A stretch of DNA of 25,016 nucleotides from a virus. Its lineage: Duplodnaviria; Heunggongvirae; Uroviricota; Caudoviricetes. The translations under genes and the position numbers were made by a program. Under the pieces are notes generated by a model. The model saw nothing but the letters and a program-made list of their open reading frames with translations. It searched no databases and was not told the DNA's origin. Positions within the stretch are counted from its first letter, which is position 1; every line of letters starts with the position of its first letter. The DNA lies in the IMG/VR virus record IMGVR_UViG_2675903352_000013, positions 1 to 25,016 of that record; one strand, 5' to 3'. Positions 1 through 25,016 of this stretch are shown piece after piece.

Positions 1-285
1 TCACTTAAATAAGTGATACTGGTTGTCTGGAGATTCAGGGGGCCAGTCTATAATAGCAGTGCGGTTAACTTCCCTCACACTCACCAGAAGTGATTCCAGA
101 CGCGTAACGGTGAAACTCCCCGGCCCAAGATTATCCAGGGCCACCAGCAAACGAGCTGTAAGCTCTGCGTCGCTGTCGTTCAGCGTTTTCACCATTCTGG
201 CCGCTACACCTGTGCTATAGCGAGATATCCAGATAGCATGGGCAATCGATTCATCACGCAGCCGTTCATTCACTGTTTGCATCAT
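1..285 (-). CDS. Phage head protein, N-terminal fragment (possibly head morphogenesis/minor capsid); gene continues beyond the window start
   Basis: ATG ATG at 285..280 on the minus strand, overlapping the portal stop (266..268); position immediately downstream of portal in the packaging operon. Family assignment is by synteny only. Confidence 0.35.
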   Translation of the reverse strand: MMQTVNERLRDESIAHAIWISRYSTGVAARMVKTLNDSDAELTARLLVALDNLGPGSFTVTRLESLLVSVREVNRTAIIDWPPESPDNQYHLFK

Positions 286-1672
286 TGATTCCCATCAGCG
301 TTACGCCCTGATTTTTTAATTCATCGATCACTTCCTCTGGACGGGAATCCTGATCGATAAATTTCAACGCCTGCAACACCCGAACCGCATCAATCTGACG
401 TATATCACCACCCTGACGCAATGACTGAACAGCCAGCGCGGAGGATGAGTCAAACACCTGGGCAGATACATCCAGCTCAGTGCGCACATCCACATTGCCG
501 CCACAACTCTCTCCGATCCATTCCGCCATTATCTGGAGAATATTATCGAGGGCATCTTCGAGGGAGTTCGCCATTGTATAAAGCGGCGAGTTTTCCTGCA
601 TCCGTTCTTCATTGGTCTGATCCACAGATTTAGTGGATGTATTTTCAGCCCGAAGAAGTTTAGCGCCGGCATGACGCATCTGATTTTCCAGTTTCTCCAG
701 AGATATTTCGCCAGACTCTATCGCGGCACCGCTATGCTCAACATATTCAAGGCCATTTTTTGCCCTGTCATCAAAAATCGTCGCGGTCGATGCTCCTACC
801 GTCAGTTCTTCGTTCCTGTCCAGTCCGTAAGCCACCAGCAATGGAACCCGAGCAACATGCAGAATATTGTCCTGCTCGCTCTGGCTTTGCCAGTGCTTGA
901 TATTCAGCAAGCCAAGATTAAGCAATGGCGGTGTACCGCGCATAAACCCGATTTTCTTCGTGTAAAGCGTTACCAAGGGAATATCATCACGGCTGGTTTC
1001 CCATGACTCGTGAAGCGTCCAGACAGATTCACCATTAGTACCTTCGCTGCGTCGATAAATTTCAACGCGACGGGACATGATATGGCGGATCTGCTCCACC
1101 TTCTTCTGCCCGAAATCATCACCATCGATAATGATGACTTCTTTTATACGCAAATCTGTGAGAACAACTTTTCCTTTTTCAACTTTCGATTTCCACCCAA
1201 TAACCTGACGGGGATTCAGCATCGTAACGTATGGGCGACTACCAACCGCATTTTCATCAGCTTTTGTCCGAATCCCTTTCATATCTGTTCGAGGATAATC
1301 CACCAGCGCATGCGCCACGCCATACTGAAGCGCTAGACAGAAAAATTGCTGCGCCCATACATCCAGTCGACTCCCCTCCATGTCGATATTTTCTGCATAT
1401 TCCCTGATTTTTTCCGGCGTCTCTTCACTCAGCACTGTCGGCTCTGCAAATATGCGCCCAATATTTTGCTTAATACTTTCTTCATACACAGGAAGTAGCG
1501 TAGCCACAGACAAGCGTTTTTTATATGTATCTTCATCTTCATTAGGCCATTTAGGGAGATAATTTTTCCCCTGCCTGCGCATTTCAAGCGTGCCACCCAT
1601 CAGTGCGTCGTTAATATCCCACGCCTCCAGCATATCGTTATAGTCGAGGTTGGGTGTTGATATATCAGCCAT
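266..1672 (-). CDS. Phage portal protein
   Basis: 468-aa ORF with ATG at 1672..1670, starting 2 nt after the TerL stop (TAA 1677..1675). Size and position directly downstream of TerL are typical of portal proteins; no specific motif recognised. Confidence 0.6.
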   Translation of the reverse strand: MADISTPNLDYNDMLEAWDINDALMGGTLEMRRQGKNYLPKWPNEDEDTYKKRLSVATLLPVYEESIKQNIGRIFAEPTVLSEETPEKIREYAENIDMEGSRLDVWAQQFFCLALQYGVAHALVDYPRTDMKGIRTKADENAVGSRPYVTMLNPRQVIGWKSKVEKGKVVLTDLRIKEVIIIDGDDFGQKKVEQIRHIMSRRVEIYRRSEGTNGESVWTLHESWETSRDDIPLVTLYTKKIGFMRGTPPLLNLGLLNIKHWQSQSEQDNILHVARVPLLVAYGLDRNEELTVGASTATIFDDRAKNGLEYVEHSGAAIESGEISLEKLENQMRHAGAKLLRAENTSTKSVDQTNEERMQENSPLYTMANSLEDALDNILQIMAEWIGESCGGNVDVRTELDVSAQVFDSSSALAVQSLRQGGDIRQIDAVRVLQALKFIDQDSRPEEVIDELKNQGVTLMGINDANSE

Positions 1673-1674
1673 AA

Positions 1675-3993
1675 TTAAATCCGAAGTGATGTAACTCTTC
1701 CGGTCGGTTTGACAATAGGGAATTGCTTAACAATAAAATAACCTCCGGCATCATTCGGGTGATCGTTGCCAGATTTTTTATCAGGCTCACCCTTATCATC
1801 CCAGACCTGTTGCTCCAGAGATTCGGCATATACCGGACAACGCTTCACATTAACTTTATAGCGACGCTCACCATTGGCATTGCAGAACATTGCATTCATT
1901 GAGTTAACGCGATCTTTTACTGGCGGATTCGAACTGTTTACAACAACGTTAAAACCAGCCTGTTTAAGCTGAGCAATATCCGTCGCACTTGCGTTATTTG
2001 ATTTTCTGGAATCCCCGGATGCATCAGGATAAATATAAATTTCCCTTACTTTCCGATAATCATTCCCGTCATATAACCAGAAGCGCTCTTTAATAATACG
2101 GATCATATCTGGTGTATCGTAAGCGTTAATGATTTCAGTTACTGCGCATGGAAGCCCAAAACGTAACACATGAACGACTCCAGCCATTTTTCCGACGTTA
2201 AAATCCATCCCGATATATATCGGCTCACCTGGCTGTTCCTCTTCTTCGCAATTATTCAGTTTTCGGTCAAACTGATGGTAAACAGTACCACTTGTCAGGT
2301 TAGTAAACTGTCCTCGAAGATAGGCTTTAATCAGCTCTGGAGGATATGACTCAAGGAGCGAGGGAATGTAATCTGCTGGCAAATTCTTTTCATTATCGAA
2401 AGTAGATGCCTGCACCAGACCATACAGTGAGGCCAGCTCTGTTTTTTCACGTACGGCTTTAACAAACTGCTCGTAGACAAATTTGAATCCTTCCGGCGTG
2501 GTTGTAACGTCAATACCGTTACGAAGTCCATCAACCTTATAACGCATACGCGCAATTATCTTGCGCCACGCTGTTCTGGCTTTTTCCTTCGGCAAAATGT
2601 CCAGTTCATCCACCAGCGCATTACCAATTTTGAAACCGACGATCGTTTGCGGCTTCTCCATCGTTCTGCAGATAGTGGTTCCACGATACTGACGTCCGTA
2701 ATAAAAATGAACTTCTTTATTTCCCTCGTTAATTTTTACATTTAGCCCCCAGTCGGCAGCAACTTCTTCAACTGTAGGATAAAAAATATCGCGAATTTGT
2801 GGATATGTAGGCGCAAAATATCCCTGATTTATACCCGGATGCTCCCAAATCCCCTTACATATGCCACCACATCCAACCCATGTTTTACCGCTATTGTGAT
2901 GAATCGTCCCATCAGCAGTTACGTAGCAGTTATTATCCAATACCTGGAGGTCATAATATGGCTCGGCCTTCTGCAACAGTGTTACACTCAATATGTTGCA
3001 GGTTTCGATTAAGGAGTTTGGTTTTGACGCCTCTTGACCGTTTAATTTGTGATTTAGCACATCCAGAACGTACCGTTTCAGAAGTTGCTTCTCTGGCAGG
3101 TTGTGACCGCAGTCATGTTTATCGTTGCATATCTCGTTATGGGTTAACGCTGAAACAACACCAGAAGCCTGTCCCTCGAGAAAGTGCGAAGGACAGAATC
3201 CTCGCTCTTGCTGATGGTCACCGTACGTCGGCAGAGATCGCGGCGGAAGTTGGTTGCACAGAAAAGCACGTTCAAAATATTCTCCGAATTCACAACGCCA
3301 ACCGGCTACCCTGTGGCGCCAGAAAGGGTGAGTTGAACCCCAGCTTTCGTGGTGGTCGAATTGTTGATCTGGATGGATATGCCGTTGTTCCAGCGCCTGC
3401 TGACCATCCATATATGCGCAGAACAGGCATGATGTTTGAACATCGTTTGATCGCTGAAAAGAAGCTGGGGCGTTATCTGCTGCCATCAGAAGTTGTTGAC
3501 CATATAGACGGGCTTCATCTGCATAACACCCCAAGTAATCTGCGAGTTTTTGATTCAAACGTGGATCACCTGCGTGCAACGATTTCGGGACGGCGGCCAA
3601 ACTGGTCAGAAGAAGGTTTTGCGAAGATGCAAATACCTTCACCGATTCGTCCAGACTATCCACAGATCGATAGCTACCGTCAGCGCAAAAAACGCGGTGA
3701 TGTCCGCTTGCTACAAATTCTCCTCGCTGCGTCACTACTCGGTATAGATTCGACACACCTTTTGGGTACGCACCACCACTTAGCGAAAGCTCAAATCGAT
3801 TATTCTCATCCGACCAAGATAAAACGCGCATTGGTCGAGTTATTTCCTGAATGGGTAGAATCCCATTCTCTGTAACCACAGGCGTACTTCCCCTCAGGCA
3901 ACCAAAACCAGCAACATAGGCTTTAAATTTATGAGGCATAGAAAGAAATCGCGCCTGAGGCACATTAAGCGTCGGAGAGATCATCTTCATCAC
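1675..3993 (-). CDS. Terminase large subunit (TerL) carrying an in-frame intein within the Walker A P-loop
   Basis: Continuous 772-aa ORF. N-extein ends KAYVAGFG and C-extein begins SGKTWVGCGG, so removing residues 32..367 restores a canonical P-loop AGFGSGKT. Downstream motifs: Walker B-like NALVDELD, and nuclease-domain acidic motifs IYIGMDFNVGK and YPDASGDS. Start overlaps the putative terS 3' end by 29 nt. Confidence 0.8.
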   Translation of the reverse strand: MMKMISPTLNVPQARFLSMPHKFKAYVAGFGCLRGSTPVVTENGILPIQEITRPMRVLSWSDENNRFELSLSGGAYPKGVSNLYRVVTQRGEFVASGHHRVFCADGSYRSVDSLDESVKVFASSQNLLLTSLAAVPKSLHAGDPRLNQKLADYLGCYADEARLYGQQLLMAADNAPASFQRSNDVQTSCLFCAYMDGQQALEQRHIHPDQQFDHHESWGSTHPFWRHRVAGWRCEFGEYFERAFLCNQLPPRSLPTYGDHQQERGFCPSHFLEGQASGVVSALTHNEICNDKHDCGHNLPEKQLLKRYVLDVLNHKLNGQEASKPNSLIETCNILSVTLLQKAEPYYDLQVLDNNCYVTADGTIHHNSGKTWVGCGGICKGIWEHPGINQGYFAPTYPQIRDIFYPTVEEVAADWGLNVKINEGNKEVHFYYGRQYRGTTICRTMEKPQTIVGFKIGNALVDELDILPKEKARTAWRKIIARMRYKVDGLRNGIDVTTTPEGFKFVYEQFVKAVREKTELASLYGLVQASTFDNEKNLPADYIPSLLESYPPELIKAYLRGQFTNLTSGTVYHQFDRKLNNCEEEEQPGEPIYIGMDFNVGKMAGVVHVLRFGLPCAVTEIINAYDTPDMIRIIKERFWLYDGNDYRKVREIYIYPDASGDSRKSNNASATDIAQLKQAGFNVVVNSSNPPVKDRVNSMNAMFCNANGERRYKVNVKRCPVYAESLEQQVWDDKGEPDKKSGNDHPNDAGGYFIVKQFPIVKPTGRVTSLRI
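2893..3900 (-). other. Intein (Hint domain) inserted in the TerL P-loop, about 336 aa
   Basis: Read directly from the minus-strand translation: block A-like CLRGSTPVVTENGILPIQEI starting with Cys (codon 3900..3898); block B-like GEFVASGHHRVF; block F/G-like YYDLQVLDNNCYVTADGTIHHN followed by +1 Ser (codon 2892..2890). No LAGLIDADG or HNH motif in this frame between the blocks. Confidence 0.7.
2958..3875 (+). CDS. HNH endonuclease (HNH_3-like motif) with two N-terminal HTH-like segments, encoded antisense within the TerL intein
   Basis: Plus-strand ORF (track 2880..3875). ATG at 2958 is preceded by GGAGG at 2946..2950 with a 7-nt spacer. Motif DGYAVVPAPADHPYMRRTGMMFEHRLIAEKKLGRYLLPSEVVDHIDGLHLHNTPSNLRVFDSNVDHL matches the classic phage HNH homing-endonuclease pattern. 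Two HTH-like repeats upstream (RTVSEVASLAGCDRSHVYRCISRYGL and RTSAEIAAEVGCTEKHVQNILRIHNA). The C-terminal ~100 aa may be non-functional read-through constrained by the opposite-strand frame. Confidence 0.6.
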   Translation: MARPSATVLHSICCRFRLRSLVLTPLDRLICDLAHPERTVSEVASLAGCDRSHVYRCISRYGLTLKQHQKPVPRESAKDRILALADGHRTSAEIAAEVGCTEKHVQNILRIHNANRLPCGARKGELNPSFRGGRIVDLDGYAVVPAPADHPYMRRTGMMFEHRLIAEKKLGRYLLPSEVVDHIDGLHLHNTPSNLRVFDSNVDHLRATISGRRPNWSEEGFAKMQIPSPIRPDYPQIDSYRQRKKRGDVRLLQILLAASLLGIDSTHLLGTHHHLAKAQIDYSHPTKIKRALVELFPEWVESHSL

Positions 3994-5059
3994 TCCTCAC
4001 TCTGGCATCAACCACATTAATATTGATCGCCACAGGCTGGGGATGTTCATTACCCTCCACCGTTTCGATCTCTTTGCGCAGTTTCTGGTTTTCCATTCTG
4101 CGCCGTTCAATTTCCAGTTCCTGCAGTCGCTTATCTGCACATAATGCCCCGCCAGCGGAAAGCAAACGCAATAATTCACGCCGGGCGGCAGCTTTATTCT
4201 CCAGCAGGATCTCAACGCCGAATTTTCCGAGCTTTGCTCCTGCATACAATTGCCGCGCATTTCCATCAAGCAAAGTGGTATCAGCCATATAAAGCTGACC
4301 TGTACCTTCTCCACCGCATTTCGGACAGTCTGGATTTGGTATGGCGCTATCAACGAAACCGAGGCCACCATATTCAGGTTCTGGTTTACCATCTTTGGAT
4401 GCCTGCGCGGCAGCCCTGTCAAATTCTGCTATATCGCGCCACTGATAGAGGTGATTCTCCCCCCAGCAATAGCGACAGTTAACACGGCGAAATTGCGCAA
4501 GCTGATTGGGATCAGCCTGCACGATGGCCATCAACTGACTCACCAGTAAATCCAGGTCTGCGGTATAGCGTTTCTGGTAATGATTGCGAAAGTAGCTGAT
4601 GGCACGAAAAACCCTGGCATTTCTAAGCATACGACTGGCATTGCTGTTTGCTGTCGCACCTTGCCCCTCGTAACCAGCCAGGCGGTATGCCTCTGTCGGC
4701 TTTTTCCCCTGAGCAACCAACATGGCGAATTTTGCCTGCTGGTCAGAAATACCGAATTCATCGGGGCAAAACGAAATTTCTTCCGTGTCCCCCTCAATCA
4801 GGAGTGCATCGGATACAGCCTTTTTTTTCTGAGATTTTCCGTTTTGCTTTTGCGCAGTCTGCGCAGTTTTTTTTCGCGCACTTTTTTGCGCAGTTTTGCG
4901 CACTTCTGTCTGCGCATTTTTCGGAGGTTTCTTGATGTAACGACGGGCTGTTGCGTAATTCAGTCCCTTTGCTTCACACCACGCCACCGGAGATACACCG
5001 GAGCGGGTGTATTCAGCAATATATTCCTGCTGCAACGCCCCCCAGTCCGGTCTGCTCAT
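3965..5059 (-). CDS. Putative terminase small subunit / DNA-packaging DNA-binding protein
   Basis: 364-aa ORF with ATG at 5059..5057, immediately upstream of and overlapping TerL. N-terminal HTH-like segment (VSPVAWCEAKGLNYATARRYI), Lys/Gln-rich low-complexity linker, CxxC...CxxC pair, C-terminal coiled-coil-like tail. Assignment rests on synteny and architecture. Confidence 0.45.
   Translation of the reverse strand: MSRPDWGALQQEYIAEYTRSGVSPVAWCEAKGLNYATARRYIKKPPKNAQTEVRKTAQKSARKKTAQTAQKQNGKSQKKKAVSDALLIEGDTEEISFCPDEFGISDQQAKFAMLVAQGKKPTEAYRLAGYEGQGATANSNASRMLRNARVFRAISYFRNHYQKRYTADLDLLVSQLMAIVQADPNQLAQFRRVNCRYCWGENHLYQWRDIAEFDRAAAQASKDGKPEPEYGGLGFVDSAIPNPDCPKCGGEGTGQLYMADTTLLDGNARQLYAGAKLGKFGVEILLENKAAARRELLRLLSAGGALCADKRLQELEIERRRMENQKLRKEIETVEGNEHPQPVAININVVDARVRSDEDDLSDA
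4842..4925. repeat. Array of six (T)GCGCA(G/C)-T-rich direct repeats at roughly helical spacing inside the putative terS gene
   Basis: Sequence ttttgcgcagtctgcgcagttttttttcgcgcacttttttgcgcagttttgcgcacttctgtctgcgcattttt; GCGCA cores near 4852, 4861, 4877, 4888, 4898 and 4911. The corresponding protein segment is a low-complexity K/T/A/Q stretch. Confidence 0.6.
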
Positions 5060-5062
5060 CAG

Positions 5063-5314
5063 TTAGTCCTGATTTTTATCCACCCTGAGTAATGCACGCA
5101 GAGCAAAGGCATCCCCTTTTCTGGCAAGCTTAAACAATGCCGCCCGTAGCTCGGCTTCACCTTTCGCTCTGCCCTTACGGATGGACGCATAAAAATTTGT
5201 CATTGTTTCCCGATTTTCTTTCAGTCTGTTCAGATCAACATCCAGAACGTCAGCGATTTGTTGTGCAGTCATCCGGCATGCTGCCAGAGACTCGACTTTC
5301 GAATACGGAATCAT
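5063..5314 (-). CDS. Small HTH-containing protein directly upstream of terS
   Basis: 83-aa ORF, ATG at 5314..5312 preceded by a GGGGGTGA Shine-Dalgarno-like sequence; stop TAA is 3 nt before the terS ATG. HTH-like segment MTAQQIADVLDVDLNRL. Confidence 0.45.
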   Translation of the reverse strand: MIPYSKVESLAACRMTAQQIADVLDVDLNRLKENRETMTNFYASIRKGRAKGEAELRAALFKLARKGDAFALRALLRVDKNQD

Positions 5315-6200
5315 TTATCACCCCCATTGATATGCAGGGTGTCTTCTTCCTGTATTTTTCGTGAAGGATTTTTACTGCAGCGTTGTTCCAGGTGACCTGA
5401 TGGTGAATGCGTTTATGGCTGGCGCCCATCAGTGAGATTTTTACGCACGACGGCGCATACATGACGGAGTAAAAACTTTTAACGTAGGTACCGGAATCCA
5501 GATACAGTTCGGTCATTCCGCCGCTGTTTTTCTGCGTTTGCTTCTGCCCTAACTGGACAGCGCCAATCGTCAAAAACAATTCACCACGACGACCGAGATT
5601 CGTGTATGTATTCACATCCTCGTTAATACGCCCCATAAATGAGAATGGTCGGTCAACAGAACAAATAAAGCTGTTCATTGCTTTGCGTTTCACCCATGCA
5701 GCATGACCACCATTATCACCAAGAAAGTCTCCCCCCTGCGCCATAGCGATGGAAAGCGCAGGAATTGATTCGTAATACGCCAGCATTTCAGAAAGGATCG
5801 CGTCCAGTTTCCTTATCGGAAAATAAGCCTGGTCATAGTTGCGATCTACCCGAAACTGAAACTCGTGATAGTCGTCATCAAGCTGGATGTAGTATTTACA
5901 CCCAACCTTTTTTGCCAGGCCCAAACAGGCATTCCTGGCATAAAAGATTGAACGTCGATCGCCAAAGTTGTCGGCTTCGTCAAAACGACTGGCGATATCG
6001 GCTTTGGAAAACACCAGCACCTGCTCACCAAATTCTGCTACGTACTGATGCCGGGTTTTATCTTCATCATCAACAACGATAAAAATTTTCCCGGTATAGC
6101 CAGCACGACGCAACGTCCGGTAAGTCAGAACTTTGTCCGGTCGCCCGTGAGTCAGAATAAAGGCGCAAAAATCATCACGCATATTACTCCTCCTCGCCAT
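5250..6200 (-). CDS. Hypothetical protein with GT-A-like glycosyltransferase signatures
   Basis: 316-aa ORF, ATG at 6200..6198 with SD GGTGGAG; overlaps the ParB-like gene by 17 nt. N-terminal pattern FILTHGRPDKVL...GKIFIVVDDED and a DxD-like motif YIQLDDDYHEF resemble the GT-A fold. The fold call is tentative. Confidence 0.5.
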   Translation of the reverse strand: MARRSNMRDDFCAFILTHGRPDKVLTYRTLRRAGYTGKIFIVVDDEDKTRHQYVAEFGEQVLVFSKADIASRFDEADNFGDRRSIFYARNACLGLAKKVGCKYYIQLDDDYHEFQFRVDRNYDQAYFPIRKLDAILSEMLAYYESIPALSIAMAQGGDFLGDNGGHAAWVKRKAMNSFICSVDRPFSFMGRINEDVNTYTNLGRRGELFLTIGAVQLGQKQTQKNSGGMTELYLDSGTYVKSFYSVMYAPSCVKISLMGASHKRIHHQVTWNNAAVKILHEKYRKKTPCISMGVINDSVFESRVSGSMPDDCTTNR

Positions 6201-6963
6201 GCATGATCTCCACCATGCGCTGCGTCATCCTGACAAACCCATTTTCAATTGCCTGCTGATAATCAATGATCACCAGAGCCGATTCCTCAAAAAGGCTCTG
6301 AATTTCAGCGGGGGCGTGAGCGTAATAGTCCGCGATTCTGCTGAAATTAAACACCGTGTGACGTTCTGCCGCGCACAGAAGGAATTTCTCAATATCAGGA
6401 TCAAGGGACACCGAACGTGTCCGGCTGATCAGCTCCTGAGTTTTCGTATCGTCGTACAGTTCACAGATATCCGGTTTATCGCCTGACGGCTCATAAACAG
6501 GCGTATCAATTTTCGTCGTATACGGCTCCTCCTCATTTCCTGTACCAGGCAAAATATCCGTCAACAGTTCATCAATTTCTGTCGGGCTGAAGCCTGTCAG
6601 GGAGACATCAAAATCAGCATTAATTAGGTCCGACAGCTCCATCCGTAACAGATCTTCATCCCAGCCAGCATTCATCGGCAGGCGATTATCTGCCAGACGG
6701 TACGCCTTTTTCTGATCATCCGTCAGACCAGACAGAACGATGACCGGAACGAAATCCATTTTGAGCACTTCAGCCGCCATAACGCGACCGTGACCCGCAA
6801 TAACTTCGCCCTTTTCATCAATCAGCACCGGATTAGTCCAGCCAAATTGCTTAATGCTTTCTACCAGTTGCGTCACCTGCTCAGGGCTGTGTGTCCTGGC
6901 ATTGTGTGCATACAGAGACAGCTCTTGTAACGGGCGATAGACGATCTTCAATTTCTCGCTCAT
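6184..6963 (-). CDS. ParB-like nuclease domain protein
   Basis: 259-aa ORF, ATG at 6963..6961 with SD GAGG. N-terminal ParB/Srx-like domain (YRPLQELSLYAHNARTH, LVESIKQFGWTNPVLID, IAGHGRVMAAEVL, KKAYRLADNRL); acidic C-terminal half. Confidence 0.7.
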   Translation of the reverse strand: MSEKLKIVYRPLQELSLYAHNARTHSPEQVTQLVESIKQFGWTNPVLIDEKGEVIAGHGRVMAAEVLKMDFVPVIVLSGLTDDQKKAYRLADNRLPMNAGWDEDLLRMELSDLINADFDVSLTGFSPTEIDELLTDILPGTGNEEEPYTTKIDTPVYEPSGDKPDICELYDDTKTQELISRTRSVSLDPDIEKFLLCAAERHTVFNFSRIADYYAHAPAEIQSLFEESALVIIDYQQAIENGFVRMTQRMVEIMHGEEE

Positions 6964-18814: not shown

Positions 18815-21800
18815 ATGAGCACTGACAAACAAAATTTTGCGTTACATTGCGACGCGAAAAATGAGGGCGCAAGAAAACGCCTCGGCATCAAAGGCGGCTT
18901 CTTCTGGACAGAGGCAAAAAAACTTTCTGTTGCGGTTTCACGCTGCATTGCTGCAATGGACGATGCAGGCTACGACGAAGATGATTTTAAAAAACCTGTT
19001 CGCGTAAATTTGCCCGTTGTTGATGACCTTCCGCCAGAAGGCGTATTTGATACGGAATTCTGCAACCGTTACGAAAAAGGCGGTGAAGATGGCATTACAA
19101 TGGTATTTATCGCGCCATCACACTCTGTTCAGGACAAACCAGCCAGCACTGACAACACCAACGTCAACGGCGAAGATATGACTGAGATTGAGGAGAATAT
19201 GCTACTCCCGATTTCAGGTCAGATTCTGCCTGTTCGCTGGCTGGCACAGCACAGCAGCGAAAAACCGGTAACGCACGTTTCACGGGAAGAACTGCGCGCA
19301 TTACATAACGCACAGGATGAAAAACTTCCCGCAGTTACAGCGCTGGCCATCTCAAATAAAGCAGCGCAACTCGAACCGCTGGAGATTCGCGATCTCCACA
19401 AACTGGTTCGTGACACTGACAAAGTTTTCCCTAATCCTGGTAATTCAGATCTGGGACTGATGACTGCTTTTTTCGAAGCATACCTGGGCACCGACTACAC
19501 CGATCGAGGTCTGCTGACAAAAGAGTGGATGAAAGGGAATCGTGTTTCACGCATCACCCGCACGCCCTCCGGTGCTAATGCTGGCGGCGGGAACAAAACT
19601 GATCGCGGTGAAGATTTCGTCCACGATCAGGCTTCGCTGGCACGCGATGTTGCGACTGGCATTCTGGCCCGTTCAATGGATGTTGATATTTATAACCTTC
19701 ATCCGGCACACGCTAAACGTATTGATGAAATCATCGCAGAGAATAAGCCGCCCTTTTCTGTTTTCCGTGACATATTCACTGCTATGCCTGGGGGATTGGA
19801 TTATTCCCGCGCCATCGTGGTTGCATCCGTGAAAGAAGCACCTATCGGTATTGAGGTTATTCACGCGCACGTCACTGAATATCTGAACAAGGTGCTGATT
19901 GAAACCAATCACGCCAATCCTGATCAGGAAATCGTGGATATTACTTGCGGCCGTTCCTCAGCCCCAATGCCACAGCGTGATACAGAAGAAGGAAAACAAG
20001 GTGAAGAAAAACCACAACCATCTGGCGCAATGGCAAATGAACAGGCAACGCCTGAAACAGTGGAACCGGATACAACTGAACATCATCAGAACACGCAGTC
20101 GATGGATGCTCAGCCACAGGTAAATTCTGTTGATGCGAAATATCAGGAACTGAGGGCAGAACTCCATGAAGCCCGGAAAAACATTCCGCCCCAAAATCCT
20201 GTCGATGCAGACAAATTACTGGCTGCCTATCGCGGAGAATTTGTTGAAGGGATTAGCGACCCGAATGATCCGAAATGGGTTAAGGGGATCCAGACTCGCG
20301 ATTCTGTGTACCAGCATCAGCCAGAAACGGAACAGAACGACCAGAAAGCTGAACAGAACAGCCCAAATACGCAACAAAACGAGCCAGAAACGAAACAGTC
20401 TGAGCCAGTAGTGCAACAACAGGAAACGGAGAAAGTTTGCACCGCCTGCGGTCAGGCTGGAGGAAATAGCTGCCCTGACTGTGGTGCAGTGATGGGAGAC
20501 GCAACGTATCAGGAAACCTTTAATGAAGAAAATATGGATGAATCTCAGGAAAAAGATTCGGAGAAAATGGAAGACGATAAACATCCGCACAAGGAAAACA
20601 CTGGCAACCATCCGCATCACAATTGCAGTGATGAAACTGGTGAAGCGTCAGCTCCTGTAGCAACTGAAATCATGTGGCCGTCATATTTCGAGCCTGGTCG
20701 CTATGAAAACCTCCCGAACGAGGTTTATCACGCCGCCAACGGAATAAGCAGCACGATGCTGAAGGATGCCCGTATCAGTTTGATGTATTACCACGGGCGG
20801 CACATTGCCGGAACTATTCCGTGTGAAGAAAGTGATGCATTGCTACGTGGGCGGATCATTCACAGCTATGTTCTGGAAACGGATAAATTCTCTGATGAAT
20901 ATGCCATTCCGGTACCGGTTCCTGAAGATGTGGTTGCCACTTCTCAAGAACTGATCGCCATTATTAAAAAACACAATGCCAGTTTGCCAGCACTGATGAC
21001 GCCAGAGCAGATAAAAGAGTGGATCGAAAACTACAACAGCACTCTTATTCAGCCACTGTCGGTAAGTGCTGGAGCCGAAGAAACAGGCATTCTTTACGGC
21101 TCGCTCCCGGAGGAATTCCGGCGTATTCCAGAAGGAGAAAAACACACTGCATCAGCAATGAAAGCCTGTATTAAAGAATACAACGCAAGCCTCCCCTCTC
21201 TACTGAAAACCAGTGGAACACGGGAGCAACTTCTGGAGCAAATTGAAACTGTAGATCCAGAACTGGCAAAAAAGAACGGGCTAAATCTTTGCCTTACAAC
21301 ATCAGTGGTACAAAAGAGCAATTAACCGAAATCGCCCGGAAAATTCGCCCGGAACTGGTAACACTGGAGGACTGGCAAAAACGCCAGCAAGAAGAAAATG
21401 CAGGAAAAACGTTTATCAGTCCAGATATGTATGAACAGGCAAAAAATATTCACGCGGCACTGCAAAACAATACTGACGCGGCAAGACTACTCAACCACCC
21501 GGATCGCAAATCTGAAATCAGCTATTTCGGGTTTGATGAAGAAACCGGGCTGGAAATCAGGGTCCGCCCTGATATCGAAATCCGACTGCCATACGAAAGC
21601 ATCTGCGCCGACGTGAAATCAGTAAGCTTCGGTTATGTGCGGCAAGAACGACTAAAAGATCGCTTACACCGTGAAATTATTGAACGTGATTATCACCTGA
21701 GCGCCGCAATGTACTGCGATGTGGCAAACCTGGATAAATTTTTCTGGGTCTTCGTCAATAAGGATGCTGGCTATCACTGGGTGGCAGTTGTGGAAGCTTC

Positions 21801-21960
21801 GCAGGAACTCCTTGAACTTGGTCGCCAGGAGTATCGCCGGACGCTACGCCAGATAAACGAAGCTCTGGAGACAAACAACTGGCCAGCACCAATTACCGAA
21901 AGTTATACCGACGAATTAAACGACTTTGATCTTCGTCGTCTTGAAGCACTGAGCATCTGA
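18815..21960 (+). pseudogene. recE: RecE (exonuclease VIII) homologue, apparently split by a frameshift into 836-aa and 223-aa ORFs
   Basis: N-terminal and central regions strongly resemble Rac RecE as recalled. The nuclease domain begins in ORF1 ([15 protein letters not shown]...[12 protein letters not shown]) and continues in ORF2 (RPDIEIRLPYE...DVKSV), which has no ATG (TTG at 21289); the frames overlap at 21247..21325. Confidence 0.7.
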
Positions 21961-21971
21961 GGAAGGACACA

Positions 21972-23024
21972 ATGAACGAATTAACTCAACAAGAAAATAT
22001 TAACTCTAACGTTGCGGTTTTCAGCCCTCAGTCCCTGGCTGCAATTCAGACATTTTCTCAGGTAATGGCTTCCGGCATGGCTACTGTACCGGAACACCTC
22101 CGGGGAAATCCATCAGACTGTATGGCCATCACCATGCAGGCGATGCAGTGGCAAATGAACCCTTACGCAGTAGCTCAGAAAACTTTCGTTGTGAATGGTG
22201 TGCTCGGATATGAAGCGCAACTGGTTAATGCCGTAATCAGTACCCGTGGACCGCTAACCGGGCGTATTGAATATGACTGGTTCGGACCGTGGGAAAAAAT
22301 TATCGGGAAATTTGAAATCAGGAAGAACGATAAAGGGAAAGAATATCGCGTACCTGGATGGAAGCTGGCCGATGAAAACGGGATCGGAGTTCGTGTCCAG
22401 GCAACGCTACGTGGAGAGAGCAAACCACGCGTACTTGAGTTACTTCTGGCGCAGGCCAGAACACGTAACTCAACGTTATGGGCCGATGATCCTCGCCAGC
22501 AACTTGCCTATCTGGCACTAAAACGCTGGGCACGCCTTTATTGCCCTGAAGTGATTCTTGGAGTGTACACCCGGGACGAACTGGACGAACCACAGGAAAA
22601 AATCATTAATCCGGTTCAGGAACATAAAAACACATCCGCCTGCCGTGCGGAACGTGAAACAACAATTATTGAGCAGGATGCCGGGGAAAACTGGATCGAT
22701 GCTTTCCGTGAACGTATTGAGCAAGCACAAAGCACCGAAGAAACAACGGCACTTCGCCAGGAAGTAGAAGCTCATAAAAATACACTTGGTGCTCTCTACA
22801 CAGAACTTAAAGGAAAAGTGGTTCAGCGTCATCACCGTCTTAATGCTATTGCCCGTATTGAGAAGATGATAAATGACCTGCCTTCATCAGGTGATCCAGA
22901 AGCAGAACAAAAATTTACGGCTCTGGAAAACACGCTGAATGCTGTACGACCACATTTAGGAGAATTATATGAGGCGTATAAAACGACACTGACAGACCTG
23001 AAACCAGAATATATCGGCTCCTGA
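21972..23024 (+). CDS. RecT/Bet (Redbeta)-family single-strand annealing protein
   Basis: 350-aa ORF immediately downstream of recE, RBS GGAAGGA. Segment TLWADDPRQQLAYLALKRWARLYCPEVILGVYTRDE parallels the conserved GPW...ARLAFGFAGIYDKDE region of lambda Bet. Confidence 0.7.
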   Translation: MNELTQQENINSNVAVFSPQSLAAIQTFSQVMASGMATVPEHLRGNPSDCMAITMQAMQWQMNPYAVAQKTFVVNGVLGYEAQLVNAVISTRGPLTGRIEYDWFGPWEKIIGKFEIRKNDKGKEYRVPGWKLADENGIGVRVQATLRGESKPRVLELLLAQARTRNSTLWADDPRQQLAYLALKRWARLYCPEVILGVYTRDELDEPQEKIINPVQEHKNTSACRAERETTIIEQDAGENWIDAFRERIEQAQSTEETTALRQEVEAHKNTLGALYTELKGKVVQRHHRLNAIARIEKMINDLPSSGDPEAEQKFTALENTLNAVRPHLGELYEAYKTTLTDLKPEYIGS

Positions 23025-23088: not shown

Positions 23089-23283
23089 ATGCGATATGAA
23101 AAAGTTAAGCCATGTCCGTTTTGTGGTTGTCCATCTGTAACAGTGAAAGCCATTTCAGGGTATTACCGGGCAAAATGCAACGGCTGCGAATCCCGAACTG
23201 GCTATGGTGGAAGTGAGAAAGAAGCCCTCGAAAGATGGAATAAACGAACCGCTGAAAATATTAATGGAGGCATCTATGTATAA
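23089..23283 (+). CDS. ralR: Restriction alleviation protein RalR (Lar)
   Basis: 64-aa product from the second ATG: MRYEKVKPCPFCGCPSVTVKAISGYYRAKCNGCESRTGYGGSEKEALERWNKRT..., matching Rac Lar as recalled. Confidence 0.8.
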   Translation: MRYEKVKPCPFCGCPSVTVKAISGYYRAKCNGCESRTGYGGSEKEALERWNKRTAENINGGIYV

Positions 23284-23464
23284 AATTACCGCCACAATTG
23301 AAAAGGAAGGTGGTACTCCTACTAACTGGACAAGATATTCAAAATCTAAACTAACGAAATCAGAATGCGAAAAAATGCTCTCAGGGAAAAAAGAAGCAGG
23401 CGTTTCCAGAGAGCAAAAAGTAAAACTGATGAATTTTAATTGCGAGAAACTTCAGTCCTGGTAA
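23276..23464 (+). CDS. ydaC: YdaC-like small protein
   Basis: ATG at 23276 preceded by GGAGG at a 6-nt spacer; overlaps the ralR stop; product MYKITATIEKEGGTPTNWTRYSKSKLTKSECEKMLSGKKEAG... Confidence 0.6.
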   Translation: MYKITATIEKEGGTPTNWTRYSKSKLTKSECEKMLSGKKEAGVSREQKVKLMNFNCEKLQSW

Positions 23465-23780: not shown

Positions 23781-25016
23781 ATGTCTAAATTACCAACAGG
23801 TGTCGAGATTCGAGGTAAATACATTCGCATCTGGTTCATGTTTCGAGGGAAACGATGTCGGGAAACATTGAAAGGCTGGGAGGTTACTAACAGTAACATT
23901 AAAAAGGCCGGGAGTTTAAGAGCATTGATAGTTCACGAAATAAATTCCGGCGAGTTCGAGTATTTAAGACGTTTTCCCCAGTCCAACACCGGGGCAAAAA
24001 TGGTGACAACGAGGGTCATAAAAACATTCGGAGAGCTTTGTGATATCTGGACAAAAATTAAAGAGACAGAGTTAACAACAAACACAATGAAGAAAACAAA
24101 ATCACAATTAAAAACCCTCAGGATAATCATTTGCGAGAGTACCCCAATATCACATATTCGTTATAGCGATATCTTAAGCTACCGAAATGAACTGCTGCAT
24201 GGAGAAACGCTTTACCAGGATAATCCAAGAGTCAACAAAAAAGGAAGAACCGTGCGCACAGTTGATAACTATATCGCCCTGCTATGTTCGTTGTTACGTT
24301 TTGCGTATCAGTCGGGATTTATATCAACCAAACCATTTGAAGGAGTAAAAAAATTACAGCGAAACAGAATAAAGCCTGATCCGTTATCTAAAACAGAATT
24401 CAATGCATTAATGGAAAGAGAAAAAGGACAGAGTCAAAACTTGTGGAAATTTGCTGTTTACTCCGGGCTTCGTCACGGGGAACTGGCAGCCCTGGCGTGG
24501 GAGGATGTGGATTTCGAGAAGGGAATTGTGAATGTCAGAAGAAACCTGACGATACTTGATATGTTCGGTCCTCCAAAAACAAATGCCGGGATCCGAACGG
24601 TAACATTACTGCAGCCTGCTCTTGAAGCACTGAAGGAGCAATACAAACTGACCGGACATTATCGCAAAAGCGAAATCACCTTTTATCATCGGGAGTATGG
24701 CAGAACCGAAAAGCAAAAACTGCATTTTGTTTTCATGCCCAGGATGTGTAACGGAAAACAAAAACCTTATTACTCGGTAAGCAGTTTGGGGGCGAGATGG
24801 AATGCAGCAGTAAAACGTGCTGGTATTCGCCGCCGTAATCCGTACCATACGCGACATACTTTTGCCTGTTGGCTGTTGACGGCAGGAGCGAACCCGGCAT
24901 TTATAGCCAGCCAGATGGGGCATGAAACTGCGCAGATGGTGTATGAAATTTACGGTATGTGGATTGATGACATGAACGACGAACAGGTAGCCATGTTGAA
25001 TGCGCGGTTATCGTAG
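23781..25016 (+). CDS. intR: Tyrosine-recombinase integrase (IntR-like), complete, ending at the window edge
   Basis: 411-aa ORF with ATG at 23781 and TAG at 25014..25016. N-terminus MSKLPTGVEIRGKYIRIWFMFRGKRCRETLKGW and C-terminal catalytic region HTRHTFACWLLTAGANPAFIASQMGHE match Rac IntR as recalled. Confidence 0.9.
   Translation: MSKLPTGVEIRGKYIRIWFMFRGKRCRETLKGWEVTNSNIKKAGSLRALIVHEINSGEFEYLRRFPQSNTGAKMVTTRVIKTFGELCDIWTKIKETELTTNTMKKTKSQLKTLRIIICESTPISHIRYSDILSYRNELLHGETLYQDNPRVNKKGRTVRTVDNYIALLCSLLRFAYQSGFISTKPFEGVKKLQRNRIKPDPLSKTEFNALMEREKGQSQNLWKFAVYSGLRHGELAALAWEDVDFEKGIVNVRRNLTILDMFGPPKTNAGIRTVTLLQPALEALKEQYKLTGHYRKSEITFYHREYGRTEKQKLHFVFMPRMCNGKQKPYYSVSSLGARWNAAVKRAGIRRRNPYHTRHTFACWLLTAGANPAFIASQMGHETAQMVYEIYGMWIDDMNDEQVAMLNARLS

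Follow-up and report, generated by a model that had tools for sequence, protein, structure and literature searches.

A terL intein with an HNH endonuclease gene on its opposite strand in a prophage and its relatives

Anatomy of the terL intein

The gene for the terminase large subunit (terL) in the Caudoviricetes record IMGVR_UViG_2675903352_000013 is split by an intein, and the DNA of this intein carries, on the opposite strand, a gene for an HNH endonuclease. The window, meaning the whole stretch of DNA that was analysed, comprises positions 1 to 25,016 of this record (25,016 nucleotides, nt), and all coordinates refer to it. The late operon is encoded on the minus strand, with terS at 3965..5059, the terL precursor at 1675..3993 and the portal gene at 266..1672. 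The precursor open reading frame (ORF) is stop-free over 772 codons from GTG 3993 and consists of an N-extein, the intein and a C-extein; the start codon of the intein-free allele is the ATG equivalent to 3984. Terminase_6N (7.5e-30) and Terminase_6C (4.7e-10) are both matched from residue 368 onward only. At 3965-3993 (minus), ~29 nt are shared by the end of terS and the GTG/ATG start region of terL, an ordinary case of translational coupling.

The insertion was delimited against the intein-free TerL of Escherichia coli strain 357900, a protein of 433 amino acids (aa), to which residues 4-31 and 368-772 of the window precursor align at 96-98% identity. Relative to this allele the window contains 336 extra codons, exactly 1008 nt, in frame, at 2893..3900. 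The insertion splits the Walker-A codons, GGTTTTGGC^TCGGGCAAAACA becoming ...GGTTTTGGT[TGC...CACAAT]AGCGGTAAAACA, where ^ marks the insertion site here and below. The N-extein (3901..3993, minus) ends in ...KAYVAGFG, the first half of the Walker-A P-loop. The intein of 336 codons (2893..3900, minus) runs from Cys1 (TGC 3898-3900) to His-His-Asn (AAT 2893-2895) and is followed by Ser+1 of SGKT. The C-extein (1675..2892, minus), placed by alignment to the intein-free TerL, extends from SGKTWVGC... to the stop codon and supplies the rest of TerL.

Within the intein, an N-terminal Hint lobe (residues 1-92; 3625..3900, minus), which holds the block-B-like sequence GEFVASGHH, and a C-terminal Hint lobe (residues 299-336; 2893..3006, minus; pLDDT, a predicted score for the local distance difference test, 72-89), which ends in ...YYDLQVLDNNCYVTADGTIHHN, enclose a spacer (residues 93-298; 3007..3624, minus). 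The spacer is stop-free, unconserved as protein and predicted to lack a fold, with pLDDT values of 25-58. The ends of the insertion are those of an intein, with Cys1 at the N-terminus and ...IHHN^S at the C-terminus, and a matching junction was found in 97 loci. A structure model built on 7 sequences predicts a Hint fold. In block B, Thr-x-x-His in its canonical form, the window reads S-G-H-H; the His is conserved in relatives and the Thr position is occupied by S, A, T or N.

A Pfam search of the middle 199 minus-strand residues returned 0 families at E<=10. The sole PDB sequence match of this region was the LAGLIDADG enzyme I-SmaMI (intein residues 72-132, phmmer E=2). A LAGLIDADG remnant was considered on this basis and rejected as a chance match, the stretch being exactly antisense to the conserved HNH core, where the minus frame is without selection at the amino acid level.

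The plus-strand HNH endonuclease gene

On the plus strand of the intein an ORF of 305 aa extends from ATG 2958 to the stop codon TAA 3873-3875 (2958..3875), supported by homologues and by Pfam. Two helix-turn-helix (HTH) DNA-binding modules (3048..3308, plus; residues 31-61 and 81-117 of the 305-aa ORF) are followed by an HNH_3 beta-beta-alpha-metal nuclease core (3438..3572, plus; EHR...VVDHIDGLHLHN.PSNLRVF.SN.DH) and a helical C-terminal domain (3669..3866, plus; GDVRLLQILLAA..LGIDS..LLGTHHHL..AQID...). This last domain lies antisense to the intein N lobe and is modelled with a pLDDT of 81-95. HTH_29 (3.4e-8), HTH_28, HTH_23 and HNH_3 (1e-5) are all matched above the curated Pfam cut-offs.

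In an alignment of 29 diverse members, residues H162, D181, H182, N190, N194, N201 and H204 are invariant. The search yielded 449 homologues at E<=1e-3, reaching down to ~45% identity over 90% of the length, and some of these, from Yersinia, Pseudomonas and Acinetobacter, are named 'HNH endonuclease' at source. The nearest solved structure to the predicted one is the homing enzyme I-HmuI (PDB 1u3e), although the match is modest. A scan of 1.84 billion representative proteins gave only 33 matches to the C-terminal domain, almost always at the C-terminus of a protein of at most 303 aa, and no Pfam family was matched.

A preliminary description of this locus, made from the sequence of the window, had placed the 305-aa ORF, a GGAGG with a 7-nt spacer and the HNH motif where they are indeed found. 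It had anticipated the two HTH-like segments before the HNH motif and the HNH_3 family, as well as an open opposite strand and a minus-strand interior devoid of an endonuclease fold, all of which was borne out. Two of its statements need amendment. The HTH modules and the HNH core do lie between the splicing blocks, within about 3060..3600, but the conserved part of the protein does not end there, as the C-terminal domain runs to ~3866 across the N lobe. Likewise, ATG 2958 exists and has its GGAGG (2946..2950, plus) 7 nt upstream, but it is an upstream alternative confined to the closest relatives, and residues 1-20 of the 305-aa ORF have a pLDDT below 50. The start conserved across relatives is TTG 3024, an ATG in most of them, which gives a protein of 283 aa (3024..3875, plus; MTPLD...) and is preceded by an AAGGAG Shine-Dalgarno sequence (3011..3016, plus) at a distance of 7 nt. 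At the homologous position, a Shine-Dalgarno-like motif together with a start codon is present in 67/70 loci. In E. coli MEI003 the Prokaryotic Genome Annotation Pipeline (PGAP) uses a still earlier start, ATG 2880 (plus), for a product of 331 aa (WP_077828224.1, 'HNH endonuclease'). Judged by these sequence features, the plus ORF is a genuine antisense HNH endonuclease gene, located, as had been proposed, where intein endonuclease domains normally sit.

Openness of the two frames

Homologous loci were gathered with the HNH alignment: 19 from species genomes, 80 of 300 IMG/VR matches, and the contigs of three database proteins. The minus ORF of 97 loci (78 of them distinct in sequence) follows the pattern G^C...[H/S]N^[S/C/T]GK[S/T], always at the same P-loop site although the terminase families differ. 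The relative register of the plus and minus frames is identical in 97/97 loci, and both are open. A stop-free minus frame of 700-940 codons extends across the whole HNH match in every locus except the two most distant ones, and plus-frame stops are limited to the stretch opposite the intein C lobe and to the last ~10 codons before the intein N-terminus.

When the plus ORF was shuffled among synonymous codons, a mean of 5-13 stops appeared in the minus frame that is used, and the 16 divergent relatives tested each gave P(0) <= 0.001. The two remaining minus frames contain 4-23 stops. By the reciprocal shuffle, 3-11 stops would be expected in the plus frame; 0-1 were observed, and where there is one it is the stop codon of the ORF itself. 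Both ORFs are far beyond chance.

Selection on each strand

The strand under selection was followed along the element in a 70-sequence codon alignment, in which pairwise differences were counted per codon position and expressed as the ratio of third to second plus-strand positions (p3/p2). At 2895-2984 this ratio is 0.29-0.64 and the minus wobble position is the most variable, as expected of minus-strand coding. At 3030-3614 it rises to 1.6-4.1, which marks plus-strand coding, and minus second positions vary most. Between 3615 and 3839 the ratio is ~1 with all positions low, so that both frames are constrained, and at 3840-3899 it returns to ~0.5, indicating minus-strand coding.

Amino acid identity and fourfold-degenerate sites follow the same course. 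In the intein C lobe the minus frame has an aa identity of 0.74 and a saturated fourfold difference of 0.70; in the HNH core the plus frame has an aa identity of 0.64, against 0.32 in the minus frame, and a fourfold difference of 0.60. Over the spacer, minus-frame aa identity is 0.20-0.32 and variation is concentrated at minus codon position 2. In the dual-coding core (3696..3840) aa identity is 0.64 in the plus and 0.62 in the minus frame, and the fourfold difference is 0.28 and 0.29, respectively, well under the 0.60-0.70 seen where this alignment codes on one strand only. The pattern was the same whether the 20 closest sequences or the other 50, more distant ones, were analysed.

In mid-element the DNA is a plus-strand gene, and all that is preserved of its antisense frame is the lack of stops; the ends of the intein are ordinary minus-strand coding sequence, and ~145-230 nt are dual-coding, where the HNH C-terminal domain overlaps the intein N lobe. 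The constraint on both strands that the preliminary description had suspected is thus seen in the codon-position, fourfold-site and stop-avoidance tests on relatives.

Variant loci and probable origin of the arrangement

Several loci depart from the common arrangement. A second intein lineage (L019-L023, e.g. L019 at 2831-3769), distinct in sequence, occupies the same TerL P-loop site. Its N lobe reads CVHPDTLIDTPNG...TDEHKF with a canonical block B, TDEH, and L019 passes the Pfam Intein_splicing model at 48.5 bits. These loci carry the same antisense HNH family in the same register, and their HNH ORF stops before the N lobe, leaving almost no dual-coding stretch. In L094 (IMGVR_UViG_3300034072_000605, ~2995-3504) a plus ORF of ~170 codons covers HNH residues 133-298 only, which leaves the HNH core and the C-terminal domain without the HTH modules, opposite a minus ORF of 666 aa; this locus is an apparent deletion form and may represent a stage of endonuclease decay.

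The two components are also found apart. Locus L106 has a 135-residue mini-intein at the same P-loop site (G^C...HHN^SGKS) with neither a spacer nor an antisense ORF over 64 aa, and its N and C lobes are recognisably homologous (VLSWS, GGFPK, LYRVVT, GEF.A.GHHRVL, NNYVT.DGTIHHN). Locus L024, from a Calditrichia metagenome-assembled genome (MAG), encodes a free-standing protein of 311 aa that combines HNH_3 (1.5e-13) with two HTH modules, and no ORF lies antisense to this gene; the C-terminus of the protein differs from that of the intein-nested HNH proteins. Because the splicing and endonuclease parts occur separately in this way, the idea of a nested mobile element, which the preliminary description had put forward, fits the locus. 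The likeliest origin is that a free-standing HNH gene invaded a mini-intein at the usual endonuclease insertion loop and that its C-terminus was later extended over the N lobe. The scarcity of matches to the C-terminal domain, its lack of a Pfam family and the different C-terminus of L024 are consistent with an origin by overprinting on the Hint N lobe but do not prove it.

The cassette also occurs on short contigs binned as a Thermoplasmata archaeon MAG (L014) and an actinobacterium MAG (L013). These are probably mis-binned phage contigs, so that host range cannot be read from MAG labels.

Distribution and mobility

In a comparison of the window with L007 and L040, two Enterobacter loci, DNA identity within the intein is 0.83-0.99 and falls to 0.52-0.76 in the flanking terL and terS, stepping sharply at the intein borders. 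A cassette so much more alike than the divergent terL genes around it, with sharp borders, indicates that the cassette moved recently. At the protein level, the C-extein of L007 is 78% identical to that of the window, against 91-98% for intein and HNH protein; in L003 this ranking is reversed. The cassette is also found in TerL proteins only 24-28% identical to that of the window, its own parts being 50-77% identical.

Complete E. coli genomes with this terL type number 777, and one of them, MEI003, has the cassette. The other 776 prophages (terL 90-95% identical) have neither intein nor HNH gene at this position, and terS directly abuts terL. Sporadic distribution combined with transfer between alleles, as is characteristic of homing elements, is therefore observed for this cassette.

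The arrangement further occurs in the only terL of plaque-forming phages, namely the Pectobacterium phages Ymer, Abuela, Sabo, Taid, Pappous, Koroua and Amona, the Dickeya phage Setonix and the Pseudoalteromonas phage PHS3; among these the structure was verified in Ymer (L108) and PHS3 (L109). Since the sole terL of cultured lytic phages that form plaques bears the element, the precursor must yield an active enzyme, which argues for splicing.

Proposed mechanism

The observations are best explained by a mobile cassette in the terL P-loop that combines a mini-intein with an antisense, I-HmuI-like HNH homing endonuclease, a reading to which we assign a probability of roughly 0.75. Confidence is high for the anatomy and the selection pattern and moderate for the homing mechanism; protein splicing, HNH expression and DNA cleavage are steps that we infer.

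On the minus strand, the ribosome would translate the N-extein, the N lobe, an unstructured spacer of ~205 residues, the C lobe and the C-extein in one pass. The two Hint lobes would then fold together and excise themselves, restoring GFG-SGKT and an active TerL. On the plus strand, the DNA of the spacer would encode a separate HNH protein, with a Shine-Dalgarno sequence and a start codon of its own. Like other homing endonucleases, this protein may nick or cut the intein-free terL of a co-infecting phage or a resident prophage, with a predicted site at or near GGC^TCGGGCAAAAC, and recombinational repair would copy the whole cassette into the cut allele. Selection acts on the plus-strand protein in mid-element, where it also keeps the minus frame stop-free, on the minus-strand protein at the ends, and on both over the ~145-230 nt of overlap.

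A wider reading is that of a large, old and still mobile family of P-loop inteins with a full-length antisense endonuclease, distributed over phages of Enterobacteriaceae, Pseudomonas, Acinetobacter and Pectobacterium and many uncultured phages, in which ~50-80 codons are truly dual-coding, the C-terminal domain was overprinted on the Hint N lobe and both proteins are under purifying selection. Taken with all its parts, this statement has about even odds.

Alternative explanations

Several observations weigh against the proposed cassette. The window intein scores 15.2 bits with Pfam Intein_splicing, under the 35.8-bit gathering cut-off, so that what identifies it as an intein is the exactness of the insertion, the residues at its junctions and the predicted fold. 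HNH_3 is marginal in the window, at 25.5 bits against a cut-off of 24.8, and reaches 33 and 51 bits in relatives. The high pLDDT of the C-terminal domain could partly mirror conservation imposed by the intein on the opposite strand. A promoter and terminator scan of 2300-4300 found no sigma-70-like promoter around the HNH gene and nothing exceeding the expectation from shuffled sequence. As the HNH protein served as locus query, inteins with a decayed HNH gene are under-sampled. Finally, when co-conversion was looked for against a single intein-free E. coli allele, the C-extein was slightly more divergent over its first ~180 nt, but the background was equally mosaic. All intein-free E. coli alleles are at least 5% diverged, and the comparison of the window with Enterobacter took the place of this test.

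Among the alternatives, the one that survives best holds that the endonuclease is real but no longer homing, being kept to exclude competing phages by cutting their terL, or to regulate terL by antisense, with the cassette spreading through ordinary recombination. Homing is indeed reached here by inference, the cassette has stayed intact despite divergence to ~45% identity, which is unusual for a cycle of invasion, decay and loss, and antisense transcription through terL would be expected to affect terL expression. However, the sharp step in identity at the intein borders between divergent terL genes and the sporadic distribution are both predictions of homing. Exclusion and homing are also compatible, since each would begin with the cutting of intein-free rivals. 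This explanation is therefore regarded as unlikely.

Many cos phages encode a packaging-associated HNH protein of the HK97 gp74 type beside their terminase genes, and the position between terS and the body of terL is a typical spot for such a protein. The HNH gene might thus be a packaging gene that is merely housed in an intein. The terminase apparently does not need it, since 776/777 E. coli prophages are without it. The gene occurs strictly together with the intein, its product combines HNH_3 with two HTH modules and has a homing enzyme as its nearest solved structure, and the cassette moves as a unit between unrelated TerL families. A packaging role is very improbable on this evidence.

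It could also be supposed that the intein is dead, the HNH gene having simply disrupted terL and left a pseudogene in a defective prophage. PGAP labels the terL of MEI003 'incomplete; missing N-terminus', and a truncated terL is the usual output of gene callers. A TerL started after the intein would, however, miss half of its Walker-A motif. The minus frame is stop-free in all 78 distinct sequences where 5-13 stops are expected, Cys1, HHN and Ser/Thr/Cys at +1 are conserved, purifying selection acts on the minus frame at the ends of the intein, and cultured plaque-forming phages have the arrangement, so that a dead intein is scarcely tenable.

The weakest alternative, by which the plus ORF is an antisense artefact and only the minus-strand intein is real, perhaps with a degenerate endonuclease on its own strand, can point to a minus frame open throughout, to the faint I-SmaMI match and to the ability of chance to yield long antisense ORFs, but it is already refuted by the codon-position data at 3030-3614, where plus third positions are the most variable, second positions the least, and minus aa identity is 0.20-0.32, and it conflicts further with the Pfam HTH and HNH_3 matches and invariant catalytic residues of the plus ORF, the familyless, low-pLDDT minus-strand middle, the chance-level E=2 of a match lying exactly antisense to the HNH core, and the free-standing relative L024 without an antisense ORF.

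Genomic context

The RalA small RNA was found at 23282-23460 (minus; Rfam RF02694, 209 bits); RalA is the antitoxin of the RalR toxin. An integrase gene lies at 23781-25016, and genes for RecE/ExoVIII (18815-21325), a PDDEXK DUF3799 protein (21289-21960) and RecT (21972-23024) precede it, all on the plus strand. From the combination of RalA, integrase, RecE, DUF3799 and RecT, the window is a Rac-like lambdoid prophage. Its RecE and RecT could supply the repair that homing would need.

Immediately upstream of terS, a TET-associated glycosyltransferase family protein (PF20691, 1.7e-35) adjoins a ParB_N-like protein (5250-6200 and 6184-6963, both minus). This pair may be part of a phage DNA-hypermodification module.

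Relation to known systems

Mycobacteriophage TerL inteins have reportedly been described by Kelley et al. in 2016. Inteins with an endonuclease on the opposite strand are already known, contrary to what the preliminary description had assumed: as referred to in a recent preprint, antisense LAGLIDADG endonucleases were noted in the dnaX intein of Synechocystis and the SpoVR-like intein of Chloroflexus (Gorbalenya 1998; Gogarten 2002, via bioRxiv 10.1101/2025.01.02.630785). Gosselin, Arsenault and Gogarten described antisense LAGLIDADG and VSR-like (EDxHD) endonucleases, and EndoVII-like endonucleases in frame 3, in actinophage inteins including those of TerL (bioRxiv 10.1101/2025.01.02.630785). 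They proposed that free-standing endonuclease genes invade inteins and warned that annotation misses them; in their survey HNH endonucleases were found in frame only, and the second ORF typically lay outside the splicing domain (bioRxiv 10.1101/2025.01.02.630785).

The present element resembles the published antisense inteins in its open intein frame, in an opposite-strand endonuclease ORF between the splicing blocks and in its host gene, which is often that of the phage terminase large subunit. It shares with them a proposed origin from a free-standing invader, signs of continuing horizontal transfer and its neglect by annotation pipelines. It differs from the published LAGLIDADG and VSR-like/EDxHD types in its endonuclease, which is HNH_3 with two HTH modules, and from the actinophage cases in its hosts, which are phages of Proteobacteria and many uncultured phages. 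Unlike the typical case of Gosselin et al., the ORF of the main lineage overlaps the N-terminal Hint lobe for ~80 codons, both frames being constrained there, and ends ~10 codons from the intein N-terminus. I-HmuI is encoded on the sense strand of a group I RNA intron, whereas here the carrier is a protein intron, the gene is antisense and the structural similarity is modest.

The ShiLan insertion of mycobacteriophage DNA methylases contains a 'hidden' out-of-frame HNH gene (Arsenault, Gosselin & Gogarten 2025, PMC11855218). As in the window, that HNH gene overlaps a host ORF kept open through the insertion, and the HNH core is 43-44% identical to the ShiLan HNH (NC_041988 44692-44913 and relatives) over ~80 residues (tblastn 8e-8). 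The ShiLan insertion has no splicing domain and its HNH gene lies on the same strand in another frame, in contrast to the Hint-fold intein and antisense HNH gene found here. Members of this HNH clade may have a tendency to reside in host genes as overlapping ORFs.

Fractured genes consist of split inteins whose halves flank a free-standing endonuclease gene, and one has a terminase as host (Dassa et al. 2009, PMC2677866). They too have a free-standing type of endonuclease gene at the endonuclease insertion point of an intein, a phage terminase among their hosts and short overlaps of endonuclease and intein. Their host is divided into two trans-spliced ORFs, their endonucleases are GIY-YIG or Vsr-like and their overlaps measure 6-69 bp (PMC2677866), whereas here the host ORF is continuous and the overlap takes up the whole length of the endonuclease gene. 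A terminase-associated packaging HNH protein of the HK97 gp74 type would be expected wherever its cognate terminase is found; the present one is absent from 776/777 E. coli prophages with this terL type.

No report of an antisense HNH endonuclease in an intein, or of an antisense ORF reaching into the splicing domain, was found in open-access full text and bioRxiv. The arrangement belongs to a rare but already described class, from whose published members it differs in the endonuclease family, the phage hosts and the overlap into the Hint fold with both frames constrained. The family is also much larger and more diverse than the described antisense inteins.

Consequences for annotation

The nested arrangement is poorly represented in annotated sequence. 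In MEI003 (L001, NZ_CP071263, 1889-4176) PGAP reports a terL pseudogene 'missing N-terminus' and an HNH endonuclease, PHS3 is annotated with a truncated terL of 391 aa and an HNH gene, and Ymer with a 754-aa 'hypothetical protein' and no HNH gene. As gene callers disallow a fully nested antisense gene, they report the HNH gene together with a truncated or 'pseudogene' terL. A query of the 5.8-billion-protein collection with the intein gave 6 hits only, compared with 449 HNH clusters, a scarcity that is itself informative. Calls of prophage intactness and censuses of inteins are biased by this skew.

Significance

The element is a natural antisense gene pair with unusually clean comparative evidence, drawn from 78 distinct sequences in which 1 kb of DNA passes through three selection regimes and includes a doubly constrained stretch. 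Pectobacterium phages are available in culture both with and lacking close relatives of the element, so that homing, splicing and antisense expression can be tested directly. Possible tools include a mini-intein that tolerates an unstructured insert of ~200 residues and an endonuclease that may target conserved P-loop DNA.

For intein biology, HNH is added to the endonuclease types able to partner an intein from the opposite strand, and the view that the splicing domain comes first and the endonuclease invades later is supported. If the dual-coding family reading is true, the pair would rank among the best-supported long antisense overlapping genes in phages, and the family would be a present-day link between free-standing endonuclease genes, split inteins and the canonical inteins that contain an endonuclease.

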